64,000 bases of DNA from an uncultured Candidatus Saccharibacteria bacterium. GTDB taxonomy: Bacteria; Patescibacteriota; Minisyncoccia; Phycocordibacterales; UBA9973. Shown here in pieces: positions 18,845-56,298 of the stretch. Position numbers and translations under genes: made by a program. The stretch lies in assembly GCA_964553015.1 (NCBI GenBank), contig CAZKJE010000001.1, positions 94,278-158,277 on the forward strand. The letters run 5' to 3'. A model generated the notes under the pieces. That model was not told where the DNA came from. It saw only the letters and a list, made by a program, of their open reading frames with translations, and did no database searches. Numbering within the stretch: position 1 is the stretch's first letter; every line of letters starts with the position of its first letter.

Positions 18845-18909
18845 CTAATTAAAAACTAGTATACCCCCACACTTATTATAAGTCAAAGAAAATAAGGTGG
18901 GGTAAAGCT

Positions 18910-21900
18910 TTATAGAGTTATTTCAGATGCAGGCCGTTCAGGCTCTGAAGAGCCCTCAGGCTCGATGAGTTCAGGATCCGGCTCGGGTGTAGGTTCGGGA
19001 GCTGGCTCGAGGGCGGACTCTTCCACAACCTCACCTCCTCCTACCTCCTCCGAAGGAAGAGGTTCACTCACTTCACCCTCTCCTTCGGGGAGGGTTGGGG
19101 CAGGGTCTCCTTCTGGCGCGGGACTTGGCTCGGGTGTAGGTTCTGGGATTGGTTCAGGTGTAGGCTCCGGTTCTGGCTCGGTAGCTGGAACTGGGTCAGG
19201 CGTCATTCCCGCATTTTGCAACAGAGTTTGAAGCTGGTCTTCAGTCACGCAGGTTTCATTGATACAAAGTTTATTTTTAGCTTTAAAAGTTTCGGCGAAA
19301 ATTTCCCCTATGCCATTTGTAGCCTCCGAGAGCCAAGTGGAGATTTTGGCATAGATAGTATTGTTCAAATCTTGAATGGCCTTGGTGAGAATTGGAATCA
19401 TGCCGGTGGTGTTTAAAGACTTCATGCCGTTTTCGTCGGTAGCAACTAGTTTAGGAATAACGAGTTCTACTTCCTGGGCGATGAAGCCGAGATTTTTAAC
19501 TGTATCACCGTCTTCATATTTCCAGTTGAATAGGACGGGTCTTAGATTCATGACTGTGTCTAGACCATAAGTAATGTCTTCTATGTTTTTCTTCATTCTT
19601 TCGTCAGAAGTACAGGTGATGGTTCCTCCATCGGCTAGGGTACAGCCGGTAGCGTTGTCGCTGTTAAAGCGGGCGATGACTCCGGTGCCAGTGGCCAGGA
19701 CATCTAGGGCGTAGGTGGGATCTGATCTGCCGATGCCGACTCTTTTATTAGTAGAATCTACATTAAGAATGACAGTGGCATCTGTTTGTTGAACCTGAAA
19801 TGCAGTTGTGCTATTGGCACCTGGTTTAACTATTGTTGCCTTAGCCGCGTTATTTAATTTGCCAGCTTGAAGCATGATGTTACCGCCATATGACTTCAAA
19901 ATAACGTCATTATTCGGGAATGTTCCACTTTCTAGTCCTATATGAGCCACCCCTGAATTGTAGTTAATATAGCCAGGAAAAGTAGCATAACCATTGGCAT
20001 TAAGATTTAATGAACCATTATTCAGTATTTGTAAATCCGCTGAACTATTGCCCATAAAAGTGGCTATGGATGTACCATTTCCCAGTGAAGATTCTATAAG
20101 ATGCAGTGGGGCTGTTGGAGCTGTCGTGTTGATCCCCACTCTTCCCTCAAAATAGGCAGAGTTGGCTCGGGTGATGGTAGTGTTCGTTCCGGCAATTGGT
20201 TTAGGAACATATAACGAGAAAGCATCTGTAACCGTAATCGCATTCGTGGAAGCAAAAGTCGGAGCGCCGAAGCTGTTGGCGGTGCGGATGGCTACTGTTC
20301 CGGATGCTGCTGTGCTTGTGTCAGTATATGTGGCGGCATTTGAATCAAAAGCAATACCATCGGTGGTCCAAGCGGCAGCTGAAACATTGCCGTCAATTTG
20401 CAGATGAGAGGCGGGGGTGGCGGTGCCGATGCCGAGATTGCCATTATTCAAAATCGTCATTCTCTCGGTCAAAACTGAAGGAGCGGCGTCGGTGCCCGTC
20501 CAGAAAGAAAGTTGTCCCGGCACTCGGCTGTCGGCTATAGTGCCGGAAGAAATTGCTTTGATGGCTGCTCCCGTAATGTAGCCCGCGGCTCCTCCATAAC
20601 CTGTAAAGTTAATGACCCCCAGTTCATCAGCTGTGGTGATAACGGTAGGAGAAGCTCCGGTGCCTCTGGCTTTTCGGAAATTGAAGTCAAAACTGTCAGC
20701 GGAAGCGTTGGCTTGAGTAAAATATCCTTTTCCTAGGTCTACAGTATCGGAAGAGACGTGTAAAAGTCCTGCGGGTGCAGTGGTGCCGATGCCGACAGAA
20801 CCTTGTATTATTGCGCCGTTTGTTGGAGCAGCTGTAGCGGTGTAAGAGTTGCCTATTGAAACCCCACCGTTTACATTAAAGGCAGAGCCTGAATTAGTTG
20901 TTTTAATACTAACATTACCGCTTGCAGAGTCTGCAGATAATGCGGTGAGAGAGGGAGCCGCGCCTGCAGTACCATATAGAAGTTGGAAAAGACCGCCACC
21001 AGCATTGTCATTGGTTAATCGCCATCTGCTTCCACCAGTTTTACCGACTTCTATATATCCAGAGTTGCTCGATTCCACACGCAAACCGTCAACATTTCCG
21101 GTTAATATGTGCAGTTGAGAAGTTGGACTTGCCTTCCCAATCCCCACCTTTCCATCTCCCAAGACTGTAATCGCAGCTGTGTCGTCGTTGTTTGCAACTT
21201 GGAAAACCGTCTCTGCGGCACCCAAGTCAGCGATACCGGTGGTGCCGTTTGACTTAGCTCCGATAATTTTTATGGCAGGAGTAGCGTCAGTGGGATTAGT
21301 AGAACCCATCACACCTCTGATAGAGAGAGCTTGTGCATCGGTATCAGAAATAGTGGTCCACTGGACTCCTCCCTCTGTCGTTGAAAGAGATGTCAAATGT
21401 GAAAAGACATCAGTTTCTGCTAAAGTAGTTAGTCCATGTATTACATCATCATCGGACAAAGCAAAATCGGGAGTGGTGGTTGCTTCGTAAAGTTCTAATA
21501 TATAGTCGGGAGTAATGTCACCTATGCCGACGTTGCCCGTACTTGTATCCACATACAGATCATCCGTATTAACTGCAAAGTCTCCAGTGGTTGCAAGGGA
21601 AACATTTAAATTTGAGCCGGCAGCAGGAGTGATAGTGACTGCGCCAGTGGAAATGAGAGACGGAGTAGAAACTGAAGTAGGAGATAGAAGTTTAGTAGCG
21701 GACAAGGTGTCAGTCGCAAAGGTCAAGTCTGCATCGTCAGAAAGAATTCCAGCAACTCCGGCAAAAGTTACCCTCGTTGCAGTAAGTGCGGAATCAGTAA
21801 TATTTCCTCCGGATAAAGTCGTGTACGTGGCTGCGCCTAAGGCTGGGGTTACGAGAGCAGGCGAATTAGCAAAAACCAGCGCTCCCGTACCGGTTTCATC

Positions 21901-23118
21901 AGAAGCAGAAGTTAAAAGTTGCAAAGAAGTAATGGAACCCGTAGCTGTGCCATAGAGAGTACCGGAGGTTGGCAGAGTTACGTTCGTGGCGCCAGTTGAG
22001 GTAAGGGTAATGGAGTTTGTGGCAGAGGTGGCAAGAGTACTGCCTGCGCCCAGAGTAAGAGTACCGGTACCAGTCGTGATAGTGTTGCCGTTAATGGAAG
22101 CCGCGGTTAATGCTCCCCCTACTGTCAGGGCGTTAGTCGTATCATTGAAAGCAAAATTCGCATTGTCCTGCGCTAAATTTCCGGAAGCGTCCACGAAGAG
22201 GACAGAGTTAGCAGTACCGCTCCCGACTTCTCCGCCGATTTCCGGATTACCCACGTTCTTCCAGGTAGTGCCATTGTAAACCTGCATCTTGGAGACAGTG
22301 GTATTGAAAATGGTCATACCGGCTGCGGGAGTGAGCGCATCTCTCTGCGCCGTTGTTAAATTATTTATTTTTATGCCAGCATGGTTGGTACCGGAGAAGG
22401 AGATCAGTCCAGAAAAGGTGGTGGCTCCACCGACACCCAGACTGCCGGAGAGCGTAGTTATTCCCGTCACATCCAGATTGCCGGAGAGCGTAGTGGCTCC
22501 GGTGACGGACAAGGTTACCGTAGTCAGTAGGTCGGTATTCACTTGGTCACTAATAGAAGTGGATAAGCTGCTTAGACCATCCTCAATGGAATTTAAAAGT
22601 CCGTTGGTTTGATTATCAAAATCAGTTTGGGAGACGAAGGAAGAAGTGTCTGTACTGCTGCTGCTGCTTCCAGAGCTACCTGCTGGACCTCGGGGGCCAA
22701 CTGGGCCTTGCGGACCGGTATCTCCTTTGGGTCCTTGAGAGCCTTGGCTGTAAATTACATTCGCCGACTCCCTGCCGATGACTACCACAGGAGGGTTTTC
22801 GATTGGTATCGGAGGTGTATCGAATCCAGAAACTGTTCTTGGCGGAGTTTCTGGCGGAACAATTTGGAAAGTATTTCCATCCAGCAGAGAAGAAATTAGT
22901 CTTTGCAGACTGTCATTCATCGGCTCTACTATGCTGCTAGTGTAAAATTCCCAGGCATTTTCTGCCAGGTTAGCAGTCAAAGTAGAAGCTTTAACAGAGG
23001 CAGACTTGAGATCAAAATTAAAGTCAAACGCAGAAGCAGGATTAAATGCAGAAAAGAAAAATACCAACACAAAAAAGGATGGAAAAAGCGAACTTTTTAG
23101 AGAAGGTTTCTGGCGCAT
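18910..23118 (-). CDS. Giant secreted fibre protein (1402 aa): collagen-like Gly-X-Y triplets, long Thr/Gly/Ala-rich beta-repeat body, peptidase-S74 intramolecular-chaperone domain, Pro/Glu-rich tail
   Basis: Signal peptide. GSQGPKGDTGPQGPVGPRGPAGSSGSS is 9 consecutive GXY triplets. Near the C-terminus SDERMKKNIEDITYGLDTVMNLRPVLFNWKYEDG..LGFIAQEVELVIPKLV matches the S-D-x-R-x-K-x-N-I start of the Peptidase_S74 domain. Final tail PEPEPTPEPIPEPTPEPSP. Confidence 0.8.
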   Translation of the reverse strand: MRQKPSLKSSLFPSFFVLVFFFSAFNPASAFDFNFDLKSASVKASTLTANLAENAWEFYTSSIVEPMNDSLQRLISSLLDGNTFQIVPPETPPRTVSGFDTPPIPIENPPVVVIGRESANVIYSQGSQGPKGDTGPQGPVGPRGPAGSSGSSSSSTDTSSFVSQTDFDNQTNGLLNSIEDGLSSLSTSISDQVNTDLLTTVTLSVTGATTLSGNLDVTGITTLSGSLGVGGATTFSGLISFSGTNHAGIKINNLTTAQRDALTPAAGMTIFNTTVSKMQVYNGTTWKNVGNPEIGGEVGSGTANSVLFVDASGNLAQDNANFAFNDTTNALTVGGALTAASINGNTITTGTGTLTLGAGSTLATSATNSITLTSTGATNVTLPTSGTLYGTATGSITSLQLLTSASDETGTGALVFANSPALVTPALGAATYTTLSGGNITDSALTATRVTFAGVAGILSDDADLTFATDTLSATKLLSPTSVSTPSLISTGAVTITPAAGSNLNVSLATTGDFAVNTDDLYVDTSTGNVGIGDITPDYILELYEATTTPDFALSDDDVIHGLTTLAETDVFSHLTSLSTTEGGVQWTTISDTDAQALSIRGVMGSTNPTDATPAIKIIGAKSNGTTGIADLGAAETVFQVANNDDTAAITVLGDGKVGIGKASPTSQLHILTGNVDGLRVESSNSGYIEVGKTGGSRWRLTNDNAGGGLFQLLYGTAGAAPSLTALSADSASGNVSIKTTNSGSAFNVNGGVSIGNSYTATAAPTNGAIIQGSVGIGTTAPAGLLHVSSDTVDLGKGYFTQANASADSFDFNFRKARGTGASPTVITTADELGVINFTGYGGAAGYITGAAIKAISSGTIADSRVPGQLSFWTGTDAAPSVLTERMTILNNGNLGIGTATPASHLQIDGNVSAAAWTTDGIAFDSNAATYTDTSTAASGTVAIRTANSFGAPTFASTNAITVTDAFSLYVPKPIAGTNTTITRANSAYFEGRVGINTTAPTAPLHLIESSLGNGTSIATFMGNSSADLQILNNGSLNLNANGYATFPGYINYNSGVAHIGLESGTFPNNDVILKSYGGNIMLQAGKLNNAAKATIVKPGANSTTAFQVQQTDATVILNVDSTNKRVGIGRSDPTYALDVLATGTGVIARFNSDNATGCTLADGGTITCTSDERMKKNIEDITYGLDTVMNLRPVLFNWKYEDGDTVKNLGFIAQEVELVIPKLVATDENGMKSLNTTGMIPILTKAIQDLNNTIYAKISTWLSEATNGIGEIFAETFKAKNKLCINETCVTEDQLQTLLQNAGMTPDPVPATEPEPEPTPEPIPEPTPEPSPAPEGDPAPTLPEGEGEVSEPLPSEEVGGGEVVEESALEPAPEPTPEPDPELIEPEGSSEPERPASEITL

Positions 23119-32315: not shown

Positions 32316-33347
32316 TTAACCCGTCCAATTAAATGCCATGATGCTAAAATCTACTAGATTAACCTTGCCATCGCCGTTCAGATCGCTTCCCGCCGGAGGA
32401 TTAGGGCGCTTATACCAATAAGCTGCTATTGAAAAATCAATAAGATTAACCCTATTATCGCCATTCGTGTCCCCTCTTGGGACATTTTTAGGCAATTCAT
32501 CATTAATATTCTTTGTCCCTACTATGAAGCCTGCGACTTTTCCGAATGCGGTTATTTCTCCGCCTAGTGAGGCCTTGGACTTTGTTTGATGCTGTCCTGC
32601 TTCAAGAACTGATGTGTCAAAGTTCACCAGATAACCTCCGCTTGTATCTGCTATTTTTTTTATAAAAAATTCCTCTTCAGAACTTACGCTGATTGTTATT
32701 TCCGAAGAAGGAGCGCTCTGCCCGAAAATGGCAATGTTGTCTCCCCTCCGTACTTCGCTTTTATCGGTTGCAATTGTCGGTGCGATGAAGATACTGCCTA
32801 CTTTAGTGGTAACGCCGGATGTTACGCTGACCGGAAAGGCAAGAAGCGAAGAGCGTGTTCCTTTGCTATCTTCAGAATAAATACTGAAAATATAGTTCCC
32901 GCCAGAAATATTTGAAATGGTAATTTGAAAATCAGCGTCCGCGTCGGCCACACTTGTCGCCACAACTTGGGCGTCTTTCAGGAGCGTTATAATGCTCCTC
33001 GGGTATGCTCTGCCCGTAAATACGACATTAGTGGAAGGAATGGTGGTTTGACCTGAGTAGTTCCCCCCTCCTCCGCCGCCGCCACCCCCGCCGCCGCTTG
33101 AAACGCATTGCGAAGTATTAAAAGTGCAGGCAGAAGTACAAGACAATGTTCCGCTGGAAAACCCCAAAGAAGAGCAGGAAGCCCCGCCCAAATTAGCGCC
33201 GTCGCATTGCTCTCCCCCCGCAATAATCCCATCTCCGCAACCGGGAACTGTTGCCGTTATCTCAACGGTTATGGCAAACGCTGGGAGCGGTCCTGCGATA
33301 AAAATAAGAAAAAACGTATATATAAATAAATTTTTTATACCATTCAT
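32316..33347 (-). CDS. Secreted dockerin-containing protein with Myxococcus-type Cys-rich repeat, poly-Gly linker and Ig-like domain
   Basis: Signal peptide. CGDGIIAGGEQCDGANLGGASC matches the Cys-rich repeat CGDG..(x)GEeCDdGN. G12 run. C-terminus DTNGDNRVNLIDFSIAAYWY...DLNGDGKVNLVDFSIMAFNW is two dockerin type-I Ca-binding repeats (D.NgDg.VN..D). Confidence 0.65.
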   Translation of the reverse strand: MNGIKNLFIYTFFLIFIAGPLPAFAITVEITATVPGCGDGIIAGGEQCDGANLGGASCSSLGFSSGTLSCTSACTFNTSQCVSSGGGGGGGGGGGNYSGQTTIPSTNVVFTGRAYPRSIITLLKDAQVVATSVADADADFQITISNISGGNYIFSIYSEDSKGTRSSLLAFPVSVTSGVTTKVGSIFIAPTIATDKSEVRRGDNIAIFGQSAPSSEITISVSSEEEFFIKKIADTSGGYLVNFDTSVLEAGQHQTKSKASLGGEITAFGKVAGFIVGTKNINDELPKNVPRGDTNGDNRVNLIDFSIAAYWYKRPNPPAGSDLNGDGKVNLVDFSIMAFNWTG

Positions 33348-35533: not shown

Positions 35534-37168
35534 TCAAAAACTGGCGGTAATGACATAGGTTAACACCGCACTGTAACTGCCTGCCTCGGTGTTGGCGGTA
35601 ATGTTGCCTAAGTAGCGAACTGAATAGGTCGTGGAAACATCGTCTCCATCCGCATCGGAAGCCACTTGGTCTGGAAAATTGCCAGTGTCTAAGGCAAAAC
35701 CTGCGGCAGCATAAGGGCTAGACACTGCACCGTTTCCTCCGGAAGCAGTCATGCGGAGTCCAAATTGCTCCGAGCCGGCAGAAGAAGCAGTATTTGTTCC
35801 GCCGATTGCGGTAATGGTATTACCGCCTGAAGTCAAAGTTGTCCCGTTTACTGTGATTGCATACCCGCTTCCGGCATTAGTGGATGCTGTGATAGTGTGC
35901 GCCTCAACTTCTGTCGCCGAACCGGTACCAGCTCCATTGGCAAAGAAATCATCTGCCGAAGTAAGCGTGCCGAAGCCGATAGTGTTGTCGGAGATACTAA
36001 ACGTGAGAGATTGCGCTGCGCCAGTGGTAAAAGTGTTGCAAGTTGACGAATCGGTAAAACTTCCATTCCCGTCGGGATCTTTGGCTGATGCTTTCCACCA
36101 ATATTGAGTGCTTGCTGACAGCGCGGTTTGGGTCAAAAAGCTTCCTTGGGTGCTGGAAGTATAACAGGCGGTTGGAGCGGCAGTGCAGGTTGCGTTGCTT
36201 CCTGTCCAGCCGGTTGAGCTTACTGCCTGGTCGTTGGTTTGCACTACCGTGGTACACCCGCTGTTTGAATAAATTGTAACTTTATAACTTAAATTATCTA
36301 CGGTTGTGTCAGCATCGGTAGCAGTCATTGTAAAGGTTGGTGTCACTGAAACACCGGTAGCGGCATTGGCCGGCGAATCCTGCGTAGGCGCGTTTGGCGG
36401 CTTATTGTAAGTAAGAATGACTTTTCCTACGGCTCCGCTTCCGCCGCTAATATTAGTTCCATCAGCCGCTCCTCCGCCTCCGCCTCCATTTCCAGAGGCT
36501 GGAGCAGAACCAGCGGCGTTAGCAGAAGCACCGCCATCACCGCCATGTCCTCCGCCTGTTGGAGTGTTTGCAGTTGGATAAGTTGCAGTACTCCATGTTT
36601 GAGGACCGCTCCACCCGTCCGCAGCAGTGCCGGCAGAAGAACCTCCGTAACCGCCTAGGCCGGCGTTGTTATTTCTTCCCTTTTCTCCTTGTCCTCCGCT
36701 AAATTTTGTATCGCCTACTCCCGAGGCTGCCGCGCCGCCAGCCCCGCCAGCTGGCGGTGTTCCCGTTGAACAGGCGCCGGGAGAACCTCCTTTTGCTAAA
36801 ACGGTTGAAGTATTTACAAACCAGCTGTCGCCTCCGGCGGTTGACGCGGTGCAACCAGCGTTTCCTGTACCAGCCGCACCAACCGTAACTGTATAATTAT
36901 TACCTGGAATTACAGTAGTTGTGTTGTCTTTTGAATATGCTCCGCCGCCTCCGCCGCCTCCGCCATCCGTAGTTGCGTTTTCTCCTCCTCCTCCGCCTCC
37001 GCCTCCCCAAACTTCAGCAGTGACAGAAGTGACGCCTGTCGGGGCTGTCCAGGTCGTTGAACTGGTAAAAGTTTCGGTAGTACTTGCCTCTGCAATTATT
37101 ATCTGGACAAATAAAAAGATAGAAAAAGATAGAAAAAATAATTTTGGCAGGTATTTTATTATTTTCAT
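35534..37168 (-). CDS. Secreted surface protein: Gly-rich segments, FN3/Ig-like middle, C-terminal domain paralogous to the 34369..35409 C-terminus
   Basis: Signal peptide. GGGGGGGENATTDGGGGGGGG runs. C-terminus LTFSISDNTIGFGTLTSADDFFANGAGTGSATEVEAHTITASTNAGSGYAITVNGTTLTSGGNTITAIGGTNTASSAGSEQFGLRMTASGG..TTYSVRYLGNITANTEAGSYSAVLTYVITASF. Confidence 0.6.
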   Translation of the reverse strand: MKIIKYLPKLFFLSFSIFLFVQIIIAEASTTETFTSSTTWTAPTGVTSVTAEVWGGGGGGGGENATTDGGGGGGGGAYSKDNTTTVIPGNNYTVTVGAAGTGNAGCTASTAGGDSWFVNTSTVLAKGGSPGACSTGTPPAGGAGGAAASGVGDTKFSGGQGEKGRNNNAGLGGYGGSSAGTAADGWSGPQTWSTATYPTANTPTGGGHGGDGGASANAAGSAPASGNGGGGGGAADGTNISGGSGAVGKVILTYNKPPNAPTQDSPANAATGVSVTPTFTMTATDADTTVDNLSYKVTIYSNSGCTTVVQTNDQAVSSTGWTGSNATCTAAPTACYTSSTQGSFLTQTALSASTQYWWKASAKDPDGNGSFTDSSTCNTFTTGAAQSLTFSISDNTIGFGTLTSADDFFANGAGTGSATEVEAHTITASTNAGSGYAITVNGTTLTSGGNTITAIGGTNTASSAGSEQFGLRMTASGGNGAVSSPYAAAGFALDTGNFPDQVASDADGDDVSTTYSVRYLGNITANTEAGSYSAVLTYVITASF

Positions 37169-42616: not shown

Positions 42617-43297
42617 ATGGAAAGAAAAACACCGTTTGTTGAGGGCGAACACTACCATGTATATTCCAGAGGAGTAGAAAAGCGAAAAATATTTATGACT
42701 ACAAAAGACTACGATCGCTTTGTGGCTCTTTTGTATATTATGAATCAAGATGCTTCGTTTAGAATGGAAAATTTTCTACGAGACAAACAAAAAAGTTTAA
42801 AAGATATTTTTAAAGAGCAAAGAGGGAAACCCCTTGTATCGATTCTAAGCTATTGCCTTATGCCCAATCATTTTCATTTGATTTTATATGAACACAGAGA
42901 AGGCGGAATTAGTAAATTTATGGGCAAACTTTTAACTGCGTACTCAATGTACTTTAATACAAAATATGAGCGAAGCGGTCCCCTACTAACTAGACCATTT
43001 CGTTCAGAACACATAAGTAGTGAACCGCAGTATATGTATATATTTTCATATGTTCATCTCAACCCAATATCAATAATTGATGGAAAATGGAAAGAAGAAG
43101 GCGTAAAAAATAAAAAAGAGGTAGAAAAATTTCTGGAAAAATATCAATTCTCAAGCTACCAAGATTTTCTAGGAAAAAACAGAGGAGAAATCGCTATTAT
43201 TGATTTTTCTTTTATCCCGGAATATATAAAGGAAATGAAAATAGATTTCAAATGCTTAGAACACAATTTTGAGCAAGGGGAGTCCTTGCTCAGTTAA
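42617..43297 (+). mobile_element. REP-associated tyrosine transposase (RAYT; IS200/IS605 Y1 HUH transposase fold)
   Basis: 226 aa. HYHVYSRGVEKRKIF, LSYCLMPNHFHLILYEH (HUH motif H-F-H) and the catalytic Tyr region LLTAYSMYFN. Flanked by family-1 REP hairpins at 42565 and 43267. The last ~8 codons are encoded by the right REP. Confidence 0.75.
43267..43293. repeat. REP-like family 1 copy (ttttgagcaaggGGAGTccttgctcag), right flank of the RAYT gene
   Basis: Same gagcaagg/ccttgctc stem in inverted-loop form. Confidence 0.65.
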
Positions 43298-50495: not shown

Positions 50496-53400
50496 TTAAA
50501 TTTTATCTCCAGACTTTTTCAAGTCCACATCAAGCGCGAGACCTCTCAGATAATTCAAAAGCACATTGAACGACGCCGGAGAATTTGGCGGCCTGATAGT
50601 TTCATTTTTGATAATGGAATCGAAAGTCGCCGATCTTCCGAGGATGTCGTCAGATTTGATGGTAAGCATTTCGCGAAGAGTATAAGCCGCGCCGTAGCCT
50701 TCGAGAGCCCAGACTTCCATTTCTCCGAATCTCTGTCCTCCGCCCTGCGCTTTACCGCCGAGAGGCTGCTGAGTGATGAGCGAGTAGGGACCAATTGACC
50801 TCATGTGGATCTTGTCTTCCACCATGTGGTGCAATTTTAGCATGTACATATATCCGACGGCGACGTCCTGCTGAAAAGCTTCTCCGGTTCGTCCGTCAAA
50901 CAGCTGTAACTTTCCGTTTTCTGGAAGTCCGGCTTTTACCAACTCTTCTTTTATCTCTTCCTGTTTTGCCCCGAGGAATGGGGGTACGATTGCCTGATAG
51001 CCGAGAGTGTTTGCGGCCATGCCGAGATGCATTTCCAAAATCTGTCCTAAGTTCATACGAGAAGGAACGCCGAGCGGAGAAAGTATGATATCTACAGGAG
51101 TACCATCTGCTGTGTACGGCATATCTTCTTCCGGAAGGATTGTAGATATGACTCCCTTGTTTCCATGGCGGCCAGAAAGTTTGTCTCCGACGGAAATATT
51201 TCTGATCTGGGCCACTTCTATAACTATCTTTTTGATGATACCCGCTTCAAGAGTGTGTCCAAGATCTCGGGAAAATATTTTTACACCGATGATGCGTCCG
51301 CGCTTGCCGTGCTCCATGCGAAGCGAGGTGTCTTTCACATCGCGGGCTTTTTCAGCAAATATAGAGCGGAGCAGTCTTTCTTCCGGAGTGAGTTCTGTTT
51401 CGCCTTTCGGAGTAATTTTACCGACCAAGATATCATTTTCTCTGACTTCGGCGCCGATGCGGACGATACCGTCTTCATCAAGATCTTTCAGTTTCAGTTC
51501 ACCTACGTTTGGAATATCGCGAGTAGTAATTTCGGGCCCGAGTTTTGTATCGCGAACTATACAGGTAAATTCTTCCACATATACAGATGTAAATTTGCTT
51601 TTCTTTACAAGTCTTTCGGATACAACAATGGCGTCCTCGTAAGTAGAACCAGACCATGATAAAAATGCCACGAATATATTCTGTCCGAGTGATATCTGTC
51701 CGGCAACGGTACTGGAGGTGTCTGCAAGCACATCTCCCTTTTTAATTTTATCGCCGACGTTTACTAAAGGACGCTGGTGAAACACTGCGAAGTTGTTATT
51801 TCGGAGAAAGTTTACGAGATCATAGGTGTGTTCTTTCTTGCCTTCTATAACTATTTTCTTGGCATCAAGATATTTCACGACGCCGTCTTCCTTTGCGATG
51901 ATAAGTCTGCCTGAATCTTTCGAAGCTAGTTCCTCTACTCCAGTAGCCACAAGAGGCATTTCAGGAAGTACGCAAGGCACAGCCTGTTTCTGCATGTTAC
52001 TTCCCATGAGCGCGCGGTTTGCATTGTTATGTTCCAAAAACGGGATCATTGAAGTGGCGATAGAGAATGCTTGGTTTGGGGCAACGTCAATAAAATCTAC
52101 TTCGAGCGCTTTCACCATGCCGGGCTCTGTCTTGATACGAGCTTCCACTTTTTCTTTGGTTATTTTACCGTTCTCATCATAAGGAATACCGGCATGCGCT
52201 ATGTTGTATTTTTCTTCTTCTAGCGCATTTAGATACACTATCTCGCCGGTGATCTTGCCATCTTTAACTTTTGCATAAGGAGTTTCAATTATTCCGAAAT
52301 CATTTATCTTGGCATAAGTTGAAAGGTGTAAAATCAGACCGATGTTCGGACCTTCAGGCGTATGAATAGGACACACCCTGCCGTAGTGCGAAGGATGCAC
52401 GTCGCGGACTTCAAGTCCGGCACGCTCGCGGGTAAGACCGCCGGGCCCTAGGGCTGACAGCGTGCGCAAATGTTCCATCTCGTACAGCACGTTTTCCTGC
52501 GCCATGAATTGCGAGAGCTGGTTGGTGGTAAAAAATTCTTTGATGCGGGCCTGTAGCGGGCGCTGATTTATGATCTGGATCGGCATCGCGGTGTCCACAT
52601 CTATGATCGACATTCTGTCCTGAATGTTTCTCTTGATCTGCATCATACCGGTGCGAACTTTTTGCTGGAGAATTTCTCCGACAAAGCGCACGCGCCTCTG
52701 GCCCAAGTGATCTATGTCGTCCGCCTTGGCACCGGCCGTATTGTTTAATTCTATTATATGAGAAATTACGGTAACGAGATCCTCTTTGGAAATTGTTCGG
52801 CGGGCCATTTCTGCTTCACCCATAGATTTGCCGAACCTTTGATTAAATCTGAATCTTCCAACAGGCGAAAGATCGTAGCGTTCGGCAGTAAATAAAGAAT
52901 TTATAAATTCTTTGGCGTTTTCTGCTGTCGCCATGTCTCCGTCGCGGAGGCGCTTGTATATTTCTATATATGCATCGTTCAAACTTTTGAGGCCATCTTT
53001 CGCCAGAGAATTTTTTATTGTTTCCTGCGCAACTGCGTTCCCCTTGAAAGCTTCCATGATCATTTCGTTCGTCTCGTAGCCGAGTGCACGAAGAAGCGCG
53101 GTTGCCGGAAATTTTCTCTTTTTATCTATTCGTATATAAATCGCGCCGTCTGCTTCGGACTCCATTTCTATCCATACTCCGCGGGCAGGGATCATTTTCG
53201 CGCCGAAATATTTCTGTCCTTTTGACTCTGATTCAGTAAAGAATACTCCGAAACTTCTGGCAAGCTGCGGCACGATGACACGCTCGACGCCGTTTATGAT
53301 AAAAGTTCCATGCGGAGTCATGAGCGGCATCTCTGACATAAATATCTCCTGTTCTTTTACAGTACCTAAAATTTTATTCGTCAATTTTACCCGCGCCTTC

Positions 53401-53690
53401 AGAAGCCCTTGGTAAGAGAGCTTGTTTACTTTAGAATCATTTTCGTCAGTCTTGGATTCGCTTAAAGTAAAAGAAGTAAACTCCAATTGGAATTTTTTTC
53501 CGGAGTAATCTATGATCGGCGTGAATTCTTTGAAGACCTCGCTAATGCCGATCTCCACGAGCCACTTGAAGCTCTTCACCTGCGCCTCTATCAGGTTTGG
53601 AAATTGAACCAGGGGCTTTTTATACCTTGAAAAATACTTCTTTGGACGAGACGTTGCACTTATTTCTTTGGGCATATTGATTGAGTACAA
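50496..53690 (-). CDS. rpoB: DNA-directed RNA polymerase subunit beta
   Basis: 1064 aa. Canonical beta blocks (GRHGNKGVISTILPEEDMPY, FGEMEVWALEGYGAAYTLREMLTIKSDD). Immediately upstream of rpoC. Confidence 0.97.
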   Translation of the reverse strand: MYSINMPKEISATSRPKKYFSRYKKPLVQFPNLIEAQVKSFKWLVEIGISEVFKEFTPIIDYSGKKFQLEFTSFTLSESKTDENDSKVNKLSYQGLLKARVKLTNKILGTVKEQEIFMSEMPLMTPHGTFIINGVERVIVPQLARSFGVFFTESESKGQKYFGAKMIPARGVWIEMESEADGAIYIRIDKKRKFPATALLRALGYETNEMIMEAFKGNAVAQETIKNSLAKDGLKSLNDAYIEIYKRLRDGDMATAENAKEFINSLFTAERYDLSPVGRFRFNQRFGKSMGEAEMARRTISKEDLVTVISHIIELNNTAGAKADDIDHLGQRRVRFVGEILQQKVRTGMMQIKRNIQDRMSIIDVDTAMPIQIINQRPLQARIKEFFTTNQLSQFMAQENVLYEMEHLRTLSALGPGGLTRERAGLEVRDVHPSHYGRVCPIHTPEGPNIGLILHLSTYAKINDFGIIETPYAKVKDGKITGEIVYLNALEEEKYNIAHAGIPYDENGKITKEKVEARIKTEPGMVKALEVDFIDVAPNQAFSIATSMIPFLEHNNANRALMGSNMQKQAVPCVLPEMPLVATGVEELASKDSGRLIIAKEDGVVKYLDAKKIVIEGKKEHTYDLVNFLRNNNFAVFHQRPLVNVGDKIKKGDVLADTSSTVAGQISLGQNIFVAFLSWSGSTYEDAIVVSERLVKKSKFTSVYVEEFTCIVRDTKLGPEITTRDIPNVGELKLKDLDEDGIVRIGAEVRENDILVGKITPKGETELTPEERLLRSIFAEKARDVKDTSLRMEHGKRGRIIGVKIFSRDLGHTLEAGIIKKIVIEVAQIRNISVGDKLSGRHGNKGVISTILPEEDMPYTADGTPVDIILSPLGVPSRMNLGQILEMHLGMAANTLGYQAIVPPFLGAKQEEIKEELVKAGLPENGKLQLFDGRTGEAFQQDVAVGYMYMLKLHHMVEDKIHMRSIGPYSLITQQPLGGKAQGGGQRFGEMEVWALEGYGAAYTLREMLTIKSDDILGRSATFDSIIKNETIRPPNSPASFNVLLNYLRGLALDVDLKKSGDKI

Positions 53691-53792: not shown

Positions 53793-54470
53793 CTAAGAAG
53801 TCAAGCGTTTTTTCCAATCTTCTATTTTTTTATGATTGCCGGAAAGTAAAACCTTTGGAACTCCATAGTTTTTAGATTTATATTTTAAAATTTCAGGACG
53901 GGTGTACACTTCGCTTGATGACACTCTTTCTTCTTCGAGCGATTCATATTTACCCAATATACCTTTTACTTGGCGGGAAATTGAATCTATTAGAATCATA
54001 GCTGGAAGTTCTCCGCCGGTAATGACATAATCCCCTATTGAAATTTCTTCTGCTTTCAATATTTTCTGTACTCGCGCATCTATGCCTTCGTATCTGCCAG
54101 AGATCATAATGATATCTGTGTATTTTTTCGCAGATTTTTTTGCATAGGCTGTGTCAAATTTCTTGCCGGATGGAGAAAAAAGAATTATTTTTATTTTTTT
54201 ATTCGTAATTCGTAATTTATAATTCGTAATTTTTCTTAAAGCTGCTTCAACGGCTTTAAGAACAGGTTCGGCGCGCATTACCATTCCTGGCCCGCCGCCA
54301 TATGGTTTGTCATCTACTGGCCGATAGTTATTTTTTGGGGCTTTGATAAAATCGCGGGGATTATAAAATTTTACGTCTATCAATTTATTCTTTATTCCCC
54401 GCCCGATAATAGACTCATGCAAATATGAATCAAAAATGTCCGGAAAAATTGTAATTATATGAAAACGCAT
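53793..54470 (-). CDS. trmD: tRNA (guanine37-N1)-methyltransferase
   Basis: MRFHIITIFPDIFDSYLHESIIGRGIKNKLIDVKFYNPRDF, DDKPYGGGPGMVM and SIGDYVITGGELPAMILIDSISR are canonical. Contains a short internal AT-rich tandem repeat at 54201-54231. Confidence 0.9.
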   Translation of the reverse strand: MRFHIITIFPDIFDSYLHESIIGRGIKNKLIDVKFYNPRDFIKAPKNNYRPVDDKPYGGGPGMVMRAEPVLKAVEAALRKITNYKLRITNKKIKIILFSPSGKKFDTAYAKKSAKKYTDIIMISGRYEGIDARVQKILKAEEISIGDYVITGGELPAMILIDSISRQVKGILGKYESLEEERVSSSEVYTRPEILKYKSKNYGVPKVLLSGNHKKIEDWKKRLTS

Positions 54471-54565
54471 CTGTATGTTTATTTACTTGTATTTATATCA
54501 CACATAAATTAGAAGAGCCATTAGGACAGCATAGCTCCCCTAATGGCCCTGATTTTTTTCGGCGT

Positions 54566-54766
54566 TCATCGCCGACGGAAAACCGCCCTGATGTACTGCA
54601 CGTTCGCGAGAACATTACGCGACCTGATATCTTGCTGTGCGCTGAGAAGGCACGAGCCTTCTCCTTCAGTCCACTCCTGTGCTTTCTTATGCCCCTGCCC
54701 AAGCAGACGCATGCAATACAACACAACTGCCACGGCAATGATGTACAGCACAATGGTTACCCACAT
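54566..54766 (-). CDS. Candidate 66-aa small membrane protein inside a GC-rich island
   Basis: AAGGAGGG lies 8 nt upstream of ATG at 54766. MWVTIVLYIIAVAVVLYCMRLLGQGHKKAQEWTEGEGSCLLSAQQDIRSRNVLANVQYIRAVFRRR has a TM helix and a charged tail. GC-rich codons (CTG/GTG/GCC) are atypical for this genome. A 9-bp-stem hairpin follows (54524-54554). Confidence 0.35.
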   Translation of the reverse strand: MWVTIVLYIIAVAVVLYCMRLLGQGHKKAQEWTEGEGSCLLSAQQDIRSRNVLANVQYIRAVFRRR

Positions 54767-54891
54767 GTCGTTGGCCCTCCTTAGGCCTTCCAAAAAAACT
54801 TTACCATAAAAAAACTAAAAGTCCATAAAAACAAAAACTCGGATCTCTCCGAGCCTTTGCTAAAGCCTAGCGCCTAATGCCTAGAGCCTAT

Positions 54892-55248
54892 TTATATTCC
54901 CTTCAATTCGTCCATTGCTTCATCCACAGTCTTCAGTGTTGAGGGAGCTTGCCCCATGCCGCTGCCGGTAGAAGTCATTCCGCCTTCGTGCCTCATGCTT
55001 CCGGCAGGCTCGTTGATCTTCAAATTAACGCGGGCATTATTCTTCATGCCGATGATGCGGAGCAAGGTGCGGATAGCTTTCGCGGTATTACCCATTCGTC
55101 CGATTATCTTGCCCATGTCGGCAGGATTTACGGTGAGAGTAATTAGTACGCCCATTTCGTCCACAGTTCGCTCTATCTTTACATCGTTTGGATTATCCAC
55201 GAGAGCTTTCACCACGTATTCCAAAAATATCTTATCTGCTTCTTCCAT
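54892..55248 (-). CDS. khpA: KH-domain RNA-binding protein KhpA (UPF0109/YlqC-like) with C-terminal extension
   Basis: VKALVDNPNDVKIERTVDEMGVLITLTVNPADMGKIIGRMGNTAKAIRTLLRIIG has the KH GXXG loop (GRMG). The position between rpsP and trmD is conserved. Confidence 0.8.
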   Translation of the reverse strand: MEEADKIFLEYVVKALVDNPNDVKIERTVDEMGVLITLTVNPADMGKIIGRMGNTAKAIRTLLRIIGMKNNARVNLKINEPAGSMRHEGGMTSTGSGMGQAPSTLKTVDEAMDELKGI

Positions 55249-55347
55249 AGTTTTAATAAAAATTAACTTTTATAATTTGCGCAGTCGTTCCGACTTTATA
55301 TACTGCATTAACTGTAATTATACTTCACCTCGCCATGGCGGGGCAAG

Positions 55348-55668
55348 TTATTTTTTTGCTTTAAGTTCTTTGCGTTTTACGGTAGGCTTTTTCTTTGGCA
55401 ATACATTTATTTTCTTTCCTGCTGTGACTTTGTCATGCACAAGAAAATTGTGCATCGTATCCGAAGGCTTTGCGCCTTTTGATATCCAGTACTTTATCCT
55501 GTCAGTATTCAAATTTTTCTTCTGTGCATCATCTTTGGCTTTAGGATTGTATGTGCCTAAAATTTCCAAAAACTTTCCGCTCTTAGTGCTGTTTTTGGAA
55601 TCAGTCAAAACTGCCCGAAAAGATGGATCGTTCTTCCTGCCTATCCTCTGAAGTCTTATTTTTAACAT
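55348..55668 (-). CDS. rpsP: 30S ribosomal protein S16
   Basis: MLKIRLQRIGRKNDPSFRAVLTDSKNSTKSGKFLEILGTYNPK is the canonical bS16 N-terminus. Confidence 0.9.
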   Translation of the reverse strand: MLKIRLQRIGRKNDPSFRAVLTDSKNSTKSGKFLEILGTYNPKAKDDAQKKNLNTDRIKYWISKGAKPSDTMHNFLVHDKVTAGKKINVLPKKKPTVKRKELKAKK

Positions 55669-55768
55669 TTTCTTAGCTTAACATAAATTGTTAAAAAGGC
55701 AACCTAAACGAGTAACGGCGTTGCTCAAGAGAAATCTCTCGAGCAACGCCGTCGATGTGATTTGGCCG

Positions 55769-56188
55769 TTACCATGTCCTGTTGGAACCCGATGATCCAC
55801 CCGTGATTCCGCCGGGAGGTCGGGTGGTTACCCGCGGACGACGCGAGGTCTGGTAAGTGGTGTTGTAACCACTTGAACCATAATACACCCTGCCGTAGTT
55901 CCCGCCGTAACAGTACGACGGAGCGAGAACCCAGCTCGCACATGGGTTGCGCTGAGCCTCGGCTGCTTGCGCCGAAGCTGCCGCCCTTGCGGCTTCGGTA
56001 GCACGTTGCGCCTCGAGTTTGGCAAGCTCGAGACAGAAAGCCCTGACATCTGAATCTTTGATGAGATTCCCCGCGCATAAGCGCGGAAGATTGATCAGAG
56101 TAGATTGCGGGTTGGCTGCTCGAGCCAATTCGCTCGATGCGCACCCCGTCACCAACATCACTGCTAGTACAACAAGGAACAGTTTCAT
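55769..56188 (-). CDS. Small lipoprotein encoded in a GC-rich island (Ala-rich helical segment, Gly/Tyr/Ser-rich tail)
   Basis: GGAG lies 7 nt upstream of the ATG. MKLFLVVLAVMLVTGCASS is a signal peptide with lipobox VTG-C. GC-rich codon usage unlike neighbouring genes. A 140-aa Ala/Gly/Tyr-rich product. A strong 11-bp-stem hairpin (55706-55744) follows. Confidence 0.5.
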   Translation of the reverse strand: MKLFLVVLAVMLVTGCASSELARAANPQSTLINLPRLCAGNLIKDSDVRAFCLELAKLEAQRATEAARAAASAQAAEAQRNPCASWVLAPSYCYGGNYGRVYYGSSGYNTTYQTSRRPRVTTRPPGGITGGSSGSNRTW

Positions 56189-56298
56189 CTCTCATCTCCT
56201 TTGAGAAGGGGCTCAAACTGCCTCCCCTAGCTCATTCTCTACAAGTATAGCACATTTCATTGCTATTGTCAATGTTAATTTGATGCTATAATTAAAGG

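Follow-up and report, generated by a model that had tools for sequence, protein, structure and literature searches.

In Escherichia coli and Bacillus, the canonical operon containing rpsP runs rpsP-(khpA)-rimM-trmD-rplS. Hypervariable surface-protein loci of pathogens consist of conserved flanks between which alleles are replaced by homologous recombination. Phage morons are autonomous promoter-gene-terminator units inserted between conserved genes (PMC3594210). In this work we analysed a 64,000-nucleotide (nt) stretch of contig CAZKJE010000001.1 (hereafter the window), in which two small open reading frames (ORFs) occupy spacers of a locus that bears likenesses to each of these systems: ORF B, encoding a predicted lipoprotein, between rnr and rpsP (island B), and ORF A, encoding a short predicted membrane protein, between khpA and trmD (island A). 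We consider it probable that the islands are self-contained accessory units in variable intergenic slots, with a base composition decoupled from that of their hosts, and we infer that such units are exchanged. Island B is best read as adding a member to a fast-evolving lipoprotein family that is uncharacterised, and island A as an orphan.

Pfam searches of the window proteins confirmed the identities and order of rpoB, trmD, khpA, rpsP and rnr (Table 1). The minus-strand order is rpsP-khpA-trmD, with 421 nt between khpA and trmD (54471-54891), and rpsP is separated from rnr by 630 nt (55669-56298). For comparison, a trmD-based scan with one genome per species returned 80 loci with TrmD identities of 67-83%, all from Candidatus Nomurabacteria, Paceibacterota or Patescibacteria metagenome-assembled genomes (MAGs) and all sharing the gene order of the window, which places the window in this lineage. 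Related loci are labelled L001-L083 (83 loci), with L081 and L083 recovered via ORF B homologues. The baseline arrangement in Nomurabacteria (Parcubacteria, Candidate Phyla Radiation or CPR) would be rnr divergent from rpsP-khpA-trmD-rpoB, without rimM. An assembly artefact or chimera was rejected as the source of the islands; the architecture is found again in numerous MAGs and read assemblies obtained independently.

The length distribution of the spacers in the relatives is bimodal at three positions. Between rnr and rpsP, 37 of 64 spacers measure at most 169 nt and 27 measure 320-1953 nt; between khpA and trmD the corresponding counts are 52 of 74 at no more than 125 nt and 22 at 252-2394 nt, and between trmD and rpoB they are 33 of 71 at no more than 251 nt and 38 at 467 nt or longer. 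Relatives lack the islands or hold different content at the same sites. The islands are accessory, which fits the suggestion in the preliminary description of this sequence that they may be small genes lodged in a core operon. Gene types in the inserts were read from translations, except for one TSCPD-domain ORF identified by Pfam. Inserts between rnr and rpsP encode mostly same-strand proteins, with an N-terminal hydrophobic segment in at least 19 of the 27 scored sequences (the window and 26 relatives with an insert). Inserts between khpA and trmD include zinc-ribbon-like and single-transmembrane (TM) peptides, HicAB-like and NYN-like genes and the TSCPD-domain ORF, and ORFs resembling HicAB and RelE toxin-antitoxin proteins by eye occur in the slots of relatives. 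Across the lineage, the rnr/rpsP, khpA/trmD and trmD/rpoB spacers would gain, lose and swap small accessory genes. The rnr/rpsP slot can also take a second or alternative cassette (L082 557-1153; L033 4579-5091; L010; L022), and these encode AT-rich secreted proteins with Tyr/Gly/Asn/Gln-rich repeats (for example GSYxIPG or NQNFQT units).

By its predicted signals, island B forms a self-contained unit of promoter, gene and hairpin, which lies upstream of the conserved promoter that belongs to rpsP itself. It would fill the rnr/rpsP spacer with a near-consensus sigma-70 promoter with an extended -10 element, a lipoprotein gene led by a ribosome-binding site, an 18-bp hairpin and the retained rpsP promoter. 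The cassette promoter is the only zero-mismatch promoter match in the window. It recurs almost base for base in 19 of 27 relatives with an rnr/rpsP insert and aligns across the window, L001, L062 and L071. In the sampled loci the consensus promoter is nearly confined to the rnr/rpsP slot, and a shared mobile promoter present at many sites was rejected on this ground. The hairpin after ORF B folds at -37.9 kcal/mol (z=-8.4), is terminator-like and separates the cassette from the rpsP promoter; as previously described, a strong hairpin follows each small gene, that of ORF A scoring z=-5.9. Relatives' hairpins at the equivalent position differ in sequence, and a hairpin with a T-run closes at least 15 of the 27 scored sequences. 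The whole promoter-gene-hairpin arrangement is repeated in L081 and L083.

The islands resemble phage morons in their own predicted promoter and terminator-like hairpin, in lying as additions between genes that neighbour each other in relatives, and in coding for the kind of small membrane or surface protein that morons often carry. The moron combination of own promoter and terminator with a contrast in guanine-plus-cytosine (GC) content is present by prediction, with 11 of 12 consensus promoter positions, a hairpin z-score of -8.4 and an outlying GC content at third codon positions (GC3). Unlike morons, the islands lie in a bacterial chromosome among rnr, rpsP, khpA, trmD and rpoB rather than in a phage or prophage, and the promoter and slot are conserved across the lineage rather than scattered. 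The islands had no PHROG matches and ORF A had no relatives in viral contigs. An integron gene cassette was also considered and rejected: window ORFs of at least 120 amino acids (aa) contain no integrase domain, and the hairpin is unlike attC, being a near-perfect 18-bp palindrome in which inspection by eye, made with no dedicated attC model, found no extrahelical bases and no GTTRRRY core. The island boundaries carry no meaningful direct or inverted repeats, and neither island has a second copy in the window.

The lipoprotein ORF and its VTGC lipobox (here LVTGC) are as first described, with a length of 139 rather than 140 aa. ORF B begins MKLFLVVLAVMLVTG followed by Cys at residue 16, matching the lipobox pattern [LVI][ASTVI][GAS]C. 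Its regions are a signal peptide, a Cys-containing Ala-rich helical region and a tail rich in Gly, Tyr, Ser, Thr and Arg. A profile search of 1.84 billion representatives placed it in a family of 53 clusters of 116-231 aa, which share a signal peptide, the motifs LA.AA.P...L, a Cys, FCLE..KLEA.RA and often NPC.SWF.APS.CYG, and a tail of the same Gly/Tyr/Ser/Thr/Arg-rich kind. Homologues P0001 and P0002 are 51% and 44% identical to ORF B, and weaker relatives occupy the same slot in L071, L033, L030, L040, L050 and L046. A simple pattern search found a lipobox in 34 of 55 retrieved family sequences, and others have an ASAQ signal-peptidase-I-type site. AlphaFold2, run on an alignment of 7 sequences, modelled a helix at residues 46-80 and a tail with a predicted local distance difference test score (pLDDT) below 50, for a mean pLDDT of 49.9. 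ORF B and its family members matched no Pfam, NCBIfam, PDB-sequence, PHROG or PADLOC family, and ORF B had no match in metagenome contigs.

The ORF B product would be exported and, anchored by a lipid at Cys16, presented on the cell surface, where a disulfide-stabilised Ala-rich helical region would be followed by the low-confidence Gly/Tyr-rich tail. A DsbA-like gene is present in the window and fits extracytoplasmic disulfides; no Lgt or LspA match was found by Pfam within the 64 kb. The nearest described proteins are the Lpp/OprI alanine-zipper lipoproteins (NF040598), which ORF B resembles as a small lipoprotein with an L-x-G-C lipobox and an Ala-rich helix, and in combining a strong promoter (predicted here) with a strong hairpin. 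Membership was rejected: ORF B scores 15.9 bits against the NF040598 cut-off of 43, and the match covers residues 1-25, the signal peptide only. Conserved Cys pairs and a long Gly/Tyr-rich tail set the ORF B family apart from Lpp/OprI. CPR cells are not known to possess an outer membrane that such a protein could tether.

The recorded gene call in the rnr/rpsP spacer is a 163-aa ORF with a TTG start (P0057, 55725-56216, minus strand) in a different frame from ORF B. The P0057 frame is broken by stops in most homologues, and the 139-aa lipoprotein is absent from the protein collection; with the record's gene call in the wrong frame, the ORF B family is probably under-represented in protein databases. 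The 139-aa frame is the only one open in all 10 homologues examined, and the ratio of nonsynonymous to synonymous substitution rates (dN/dS) is 0.24-0.34 among three related family members. Comparative evidence of this kind indicates that ORF B is protein-coding. The description of island B as having open frames on both strands was overstated for ORF B, as the antisense frames contain 5-7 stops and only one alternative frame, on the same strand, is open.

Structured RNA had been named at the outset as the alternative; one or both islands would then be non-coding (a small RNA, riboswitch or leader) and their ORFs artefacts of GC-rich sequence. The strong hairpins, the flat codon-position GC of ORF B and the orphan status of ORF A would fit such RNAs, and GC-rich sequence gives long open frames, as the public gene call in a different frame illustrates for island B. 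The hairpins, however, lie where terminators are expected, and the 5' leaders fold no better than shuffled sequence. An Rfam scan of the whole window at gathering scores returned three tRNAs only, and a permissive scan of 54400-56350 (E<=10) gave noise, the best hit being SNORD111 at 29 bits against a threshold of 46, which we take as chance. With the ORF B frame conserved, a signal peptide and lipobox, more than 50 clusters and dN/dS below 1, we regard a structured RNA as very unlikely.

Cassette identity is not tied to core identity (rho 0.22, n=45 pairs, from 10 genomes). The least similar cassette (30-33%) is that of L001 and L083, which are the closest relatives by core genes (92-93%). 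When island B is aligned to L001 as DNA, the promoter alone aligns, with flanking core genes 79-87% identical. All ORF B homologues with genomic context come from related Nomurabacteria/Paceibacteria genomes, in which they lie in the rnr/rpsP slot and follow the same conserved promoter. These data favour cassettes being exchanged or replaced among related lineages, or allele classes that have persisted for long, over a one-off import from outside. Under exchange, related lineages would share an accessory gene pool, with recombination through the conserved flanks as the means of transfer.

The compositional anomaly is real and specific to ORF A and ORF B. Against a window mean GC of 0.424 and a 99th percentile of 0.58, ORF B has a GC content of 0.571, with a 200-nt peak of 0.63 that ties with the window maximum. 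Both islands had been described as clearly richer in GC than their neighbours; this holds for island B and for ORF A alone (0.53), but island A as delimited reaches only 0.467, compared with 0.479 in neighbouring khpA. The excess extends to synonymous sites in both ORFs, with GC3 of 0.57 in ORF B and 0.61 in ORF A versus 0.397±0.061 (maximum 0.50) in 48 long window ORFs. Elsewhere in the window, GC peaks are due to second codon positions and fall in Gly-rich or tail-fibre-like surface proteins, whose GC3 is 0.41-0.44. GC-rich patches at 18910-23118, 32316-33347 and 35534-37168 (minus strand) encode large surface-type proteins, and the domains found among the GC-rich surface proteins are a Peptidase_S74 chaperone, immunoglobulin-like (Ig) plus dockerin, and Gly_rich_2.

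Such a contrast invites the explanation that the islands were recently acquired from a GC-rich donor outside the lineage, whether another phylum, a host bacterium, a phage or a plasmid, and lodged here by chance. The GC3 values of ORF A and ORF B lie 2.8-3.5 standard deviations above those of window genes, the cassettes use translation led by a ribosome-binding site unlike the core genes, island A is a clean insertion of 420 nt for which no relative was found anywhere searched, and same-slot inserts in some relatives reach a GC3 of 0.86, for example the TSCPD-domain ORF of L012. Yet no match was found in viral contigs, plasmids, PHROGs or PADLOC, no ORF B homologue has an outside annotation, and the edge elements and promoter style of ORF A resemble those of the lineage. 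Recent outside acquisition also misfits ORF B because its family is seen only in the same slot, behind the same promoter and in related genomes. What remains of the original suggestion of horizontally acquired genes is that these are small coding genes unlike the core genes around them in composition and expression signals; an outside GC-rich donor for ORF B is not borne out, and we judge such a donor unlikely.

The GC content of the ORF B family does not track host genome GC3. Family members have GC contents of 0.57-0.65 and GC3 of 0.57-0.79, with flanking core genes at GC3 of 0.28-0.53. Cassettes behind the consensus promoter exceed core genes by a mean of 0.18 in GC3, with a maximum near 0.45, and in the GC-rich host L008 the cassette GC3 falls below that of the core. 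A tentative alternative to which we give some, though limited, credence is that the cassettes are long-term residents whose GC excess arises in place and does not point to a foreign origin, through GC-biased gene conversion at a recombination hot spot between conserved flanks or selection on the mRNA or codon properties of a very highly expressed gene. The elevation is confined to the ORF, which is hypervariable between conserved promoter and terminator flanks, the family keeps its 0.57-0.65 GC across hosts of differing core GC3, and the near-consensus promoter suggests high expression. This account does not extend to the second tandem cassettes of L082 and L033, which share the slot and are AT-rich like the host, and it leaves the GC-richness of the unrelated small genes between khpA and trmD unexplained.

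Compared with L001, island A is a clean insertion: the L001 bases matching window positions 54890 and 54469 are immediate neighbours (6001 and 6002). It would fill the khpA/trmD spacer, after the khpA terminator, with a promoter-like element, a ribosome-binding site, ORF A and its hairpins, followed by the trmD promoter. The larger ORF A hairpin (54514-54550) has an A-run and a U-rich stretch at its flanks, the form of a bidirectional terminator, and the candidate ORF A promoter resembles the lineage's own rpsP promoters. A blastn comparison showed that the left edge of the island, with its TAGGCNN repeats, is shared with L046, and that the right edge carries the trmD promoter, which L047 and others also have; the centre has no counterpart among the 83 loci. 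The 66-aa TM protein exists as first described, with an N-terminal hydrophobic helix. In a search of 5.8 billion proteins ORF A matched only itself (P0003); neither the 83 loci nor viral or metagenome contigs yielded a relative, no Pfam, NCBIfam, PDB-sequence, PHROG or PADLOC family matched, and island A DNA has no match among plasmids. ORF A is probably a protein-coding gene, though unproven.

ORF A could be the toxin of a type I toxin-antitoxin module, a small hydrophobic membrane peptide kept in check by an antisense RNA, which would explain why it is stably retained in the slot. Its length, single TM helix, basic tail and structured flanks, together with the HicAB- and RelE-like ORFs seen by eye in relatives' slots, point in that direction, but a consensus scan found no promoter-like site on the opposite strand within 54480-54890, no family match was obtained, and 66 aa lies near the top of the size range of type I toxins. 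We consider this highly improbable. ORF A residues 21-34 (LLGQGHKKAQEWTE) weakly resemble the TrmD C-terminal motif LLSGNHKKIEDWKK, at ~50% identity over 14 aa (E ~0.3); the codons are little alike by eye, and the resemblance is probably chance.

The spacer that holds island A is where rimM would stand in the canonical operon. As in that operon, rpsP, khpA and trmD lie in the same order on the same strand; unlike it, rimM is absent here, rpoB rather than rplS follows trmD, rpsP and trmD have separate predicted promoters, and a predicted terminator follows khpA. The term "core operon" used at the outset is therefore loose: the gene order holds, but rpsP and trmD have conserved predicted promoters of their own and khpA is followed by a predicted terminator. 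The reported absence of rimM between khpA and trmD was confirmed, the 421-nt spacer containing only ORF A. Pfam found no RimM or PRC-barrel match in ORF A and no such domain in any window ORF of at least 120 aa. A wider phmmer search (E<=10) for a RimM-like segment in 945 kb, comprising the window and the 83 related loci, was likewise negative; its queries were E. coli and B. subtilis RimM sequences, which detect each other at E ~1e-23. All 74 relatives examined have a khpA-trmD junction without rimM. RimM is reported to be missing from most or nearly all CPR genomes (PMC6744442, PMC12641178), and its loss here is a documented CPR-wide trait not to be counted as a discovery. The idea that island A took the place of rimM fails, as rimM is not expected in this lineage; nothing replaced it, since the 52 of 74 relatives with khpA and trmD at most 125 nt apart, some with abutting or overlapping genes, also lack it.

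The core genes and the cassettes also differ in their translation signals. In about 35 insert-free relatives, TTGCCTTTTT-N12-TATGTTAAGCT followed by 6-8 nt precedes the rpsP ATG, and the same element is found in relatives with an insert. A near-identical trmD promoter sequence precedes trmD in L047, L074, L028 and L041, and most relatives have a hairpin and T-run terminator between khpA and trmD. In the window and in L001-L080, the conserved promoters of rpsP, rnr and trmD end 6-20 nt before the start codon, with no ribosome-binding site. Judged by these predicted promoters, the three core genes look leaderless or nearly so, which suggests widespread leaderless or short-leader mRNAs in the lineage; in the literature collection searched, no paper joined Patescibacteria, leaderless and Shine-Dalgarno. 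The rarity of proper Shine-Dalgarno sites in the window, remarked on earlier, was upheld: a strong ribosome-binding core precedes the longest-ORF start in 0 of 48 long ORFs; the two small ORFs each carry AAGGAG(G) 7-9 nt upstream of the ATG. A further consensus-like promoter, TTGACT...TATACT (2 mismatches), lies at 18858-18886 on the minus strand with GGAGG and an ATG, upstream of an Orn/Arg decarboxylase-family gene whose true start may be 18766 rather than 18844 (minus strand).

Several points weigh against the islands being self-contained, exchanged accessory units. Vertical descent, if losses were numerous and divergence very rapid, could yield much of the pattern, the core-versus-cassette comparison covers 10 genomes only, and the taxonomic range of the ORF B family is known only from the ~12 members that come with genomic context. 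The GC content of ORF B hardly varies among codon positions (0.56/0.59/0.57), an atypical coding signature. The U-tract of its hairpin is imperfect, so termination may be inefficient. The promoters, terminators and lipidation are predictions, as are expression, surface display and the mechanism of transfer. The candidate ORF A promoter falls below the consensus-scan threshold and is a tentative assignment, and with no homologue the translation of ORF A rests on its signals (ribosome-binding site, TM helix and terminator).

Like the hypervariable surface-protein loci of pathogens, island B has conserved flanks around a highly divergent gene for a predicted exported protein, an allele type incongruent with the core phylogeny (n=10 genomes) and variable presence or absence; unlike them, it has no silent donor copies or repeats nearby. 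On a more speculative reading, which we think rather improbable, the rnr/rpsP spacer is a dedicated expression site for hypervariable surface lipoproteins, framed by the lineage-conserved promoter and a terminator, whose alleles are swapped between lineages by homologous recombination via the flanks and kept GC-rich, with a role in host attachment or phage recognition. If this were true, GC-richness would be maintained by, for example, GC-biased gene conversion, and the product would mediate host attachment or phage recognition in these episymbionts, or diversify under pressure from them.

Table 1. Positions of the genes and predicted signals of the locus in the window.
Feature	Position	Strand	Details or basis
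rnr, RNase R, divergent from island B cassette	56299-58317	+	Pfam RNB/CSD2/S1
rnr element TGCTATAAT, 6 nt before ATG	56284-56298	+	sequence reading
Predicted cassette promoter TTGACA, 17-nt spacer, TG-extended TATACT (TGcTATACT)	56244-56272	-	consensus scan, 11/12
Ribosome-binding site AAGGAG, 7 nt before ORF B ATG	56196-56201	-	sequence reading and scan
ORF B, 139-aa predicted lipoprotein, GC 0.57	55769-56188	-	starts MKLFLVVLAVMLVTGC
18-bp GC-rich hairpin after ORF B	55715-55752	-	inverted repeat I5, 94% complementary
rpsP promoter TTGCCT, 16-nt spacer with TG, TAAGCT, 6 nt to ATG	55675-55702	-	kept downstream of cassette
rpsP, ribosomal protein S16	55348-55668	-	Pfam PF00886, E=1.3e-19
khpA, KH-domain RNA-binding protein	54892-55248	-	Pfam PF13083, E=6e-21
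Heptamer-period TAGGCNN repeats directly after khpA stop	54860-54890	-	Tandem Repeats Finder, period 7, 4.4 copies
khpA predicted terminator, hairpin then U-run	54828-54861	-	fold -28.5 kcal/mol, z=-5.45
Candidate ORF A promoter TGGACT, 16 nt, TGgTAAAGT	54798-54825	-	read by eye
Ribosome-binding site AAGGAGG, 9 nt before ORF A ATG	54776-54782	-	sequence reading and scan
ORF A, 66-aa orphan, N-terminal TM helix, basic tail, GC 0.53	54566-54766	-	ORF list
Two hairpins after ORF A	54514-54575	-	inverted repeat I8; fold -35.2 kcal/mol, z=-5.9
trmD promoter-like extended -10 TGTGATATAAAT, ~21 nt before ATG	54491-54503	-	shared with relatives
trmD, tRNA m1G37 methyltransferase	53793-54470	-	Pfam PF01746, E=1.8e-38
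rpoB	50496-53690	-	Pfam

Repeat elements were observed at several points of the locus. Heptamer repeats (TAGGCNN after khpA; TATAAGC or CTAGNNN before trmD in relatives) flank the terminator of the khpA-trmD junction in the window, L046, L009, L018, L045, L029, L032, L012 and L019; they sometimes form long imperfect palindromes and put TAG in all three frames. A different heptamer, ATTCGTA, is repeated 4.4 times in frame within trmD (54201-54231) and encodes ITNYKLRITNKK in a variable TrmD loop, where relatives have other inserts of 10-30 aa (ITNYELRIT, KFSSGPRISS, NFSRVLGKNPQTT); these look like small repeat elements tolerated within coding sequence. In at least eight relatives (L006, L016, L020, L025, L033, L051, L060 and L079) the khpA-trmD spacer is filled by a conserved palindromic element of ~90-110 nt (AAAGAGCGAATACAAAAGTTTTC...GAAAAC.TTTGTATTCGCTCTTT) resembling a miniature inverted-repeat transposable element (MITE) or repetitive extragenic palindrome (REP). 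The window encodes an IS200-like Y1 transposase domain protein at 42617-43297 (plus strand), and ORFs starting MSIRKV.LVSGEYYHIYNRGN lie in the trmD-rpoB slot of L020, L028 and L048; that either is linked to the palindromic elements is speculative.

Variable intergenic slots with accessory cassettes are nothing out of the ordinary, and only the fixed slot, the conserved promoter of predicted high strength and the host-independent GC content are unusual here. CPR bacteria are uncultured episymbionts, and very little is known of their surface biology. The fixed, strongly promoted slot, the fast divergence relative to the core genes and the composition unrelated to the host make the ORF B family a concrete candidate for a host- or phage-interaction factor. 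The locus could also help to tell whether recombination or biased gene conversion, as opposed to horizontal transfer, has been at work in reduced genomes.

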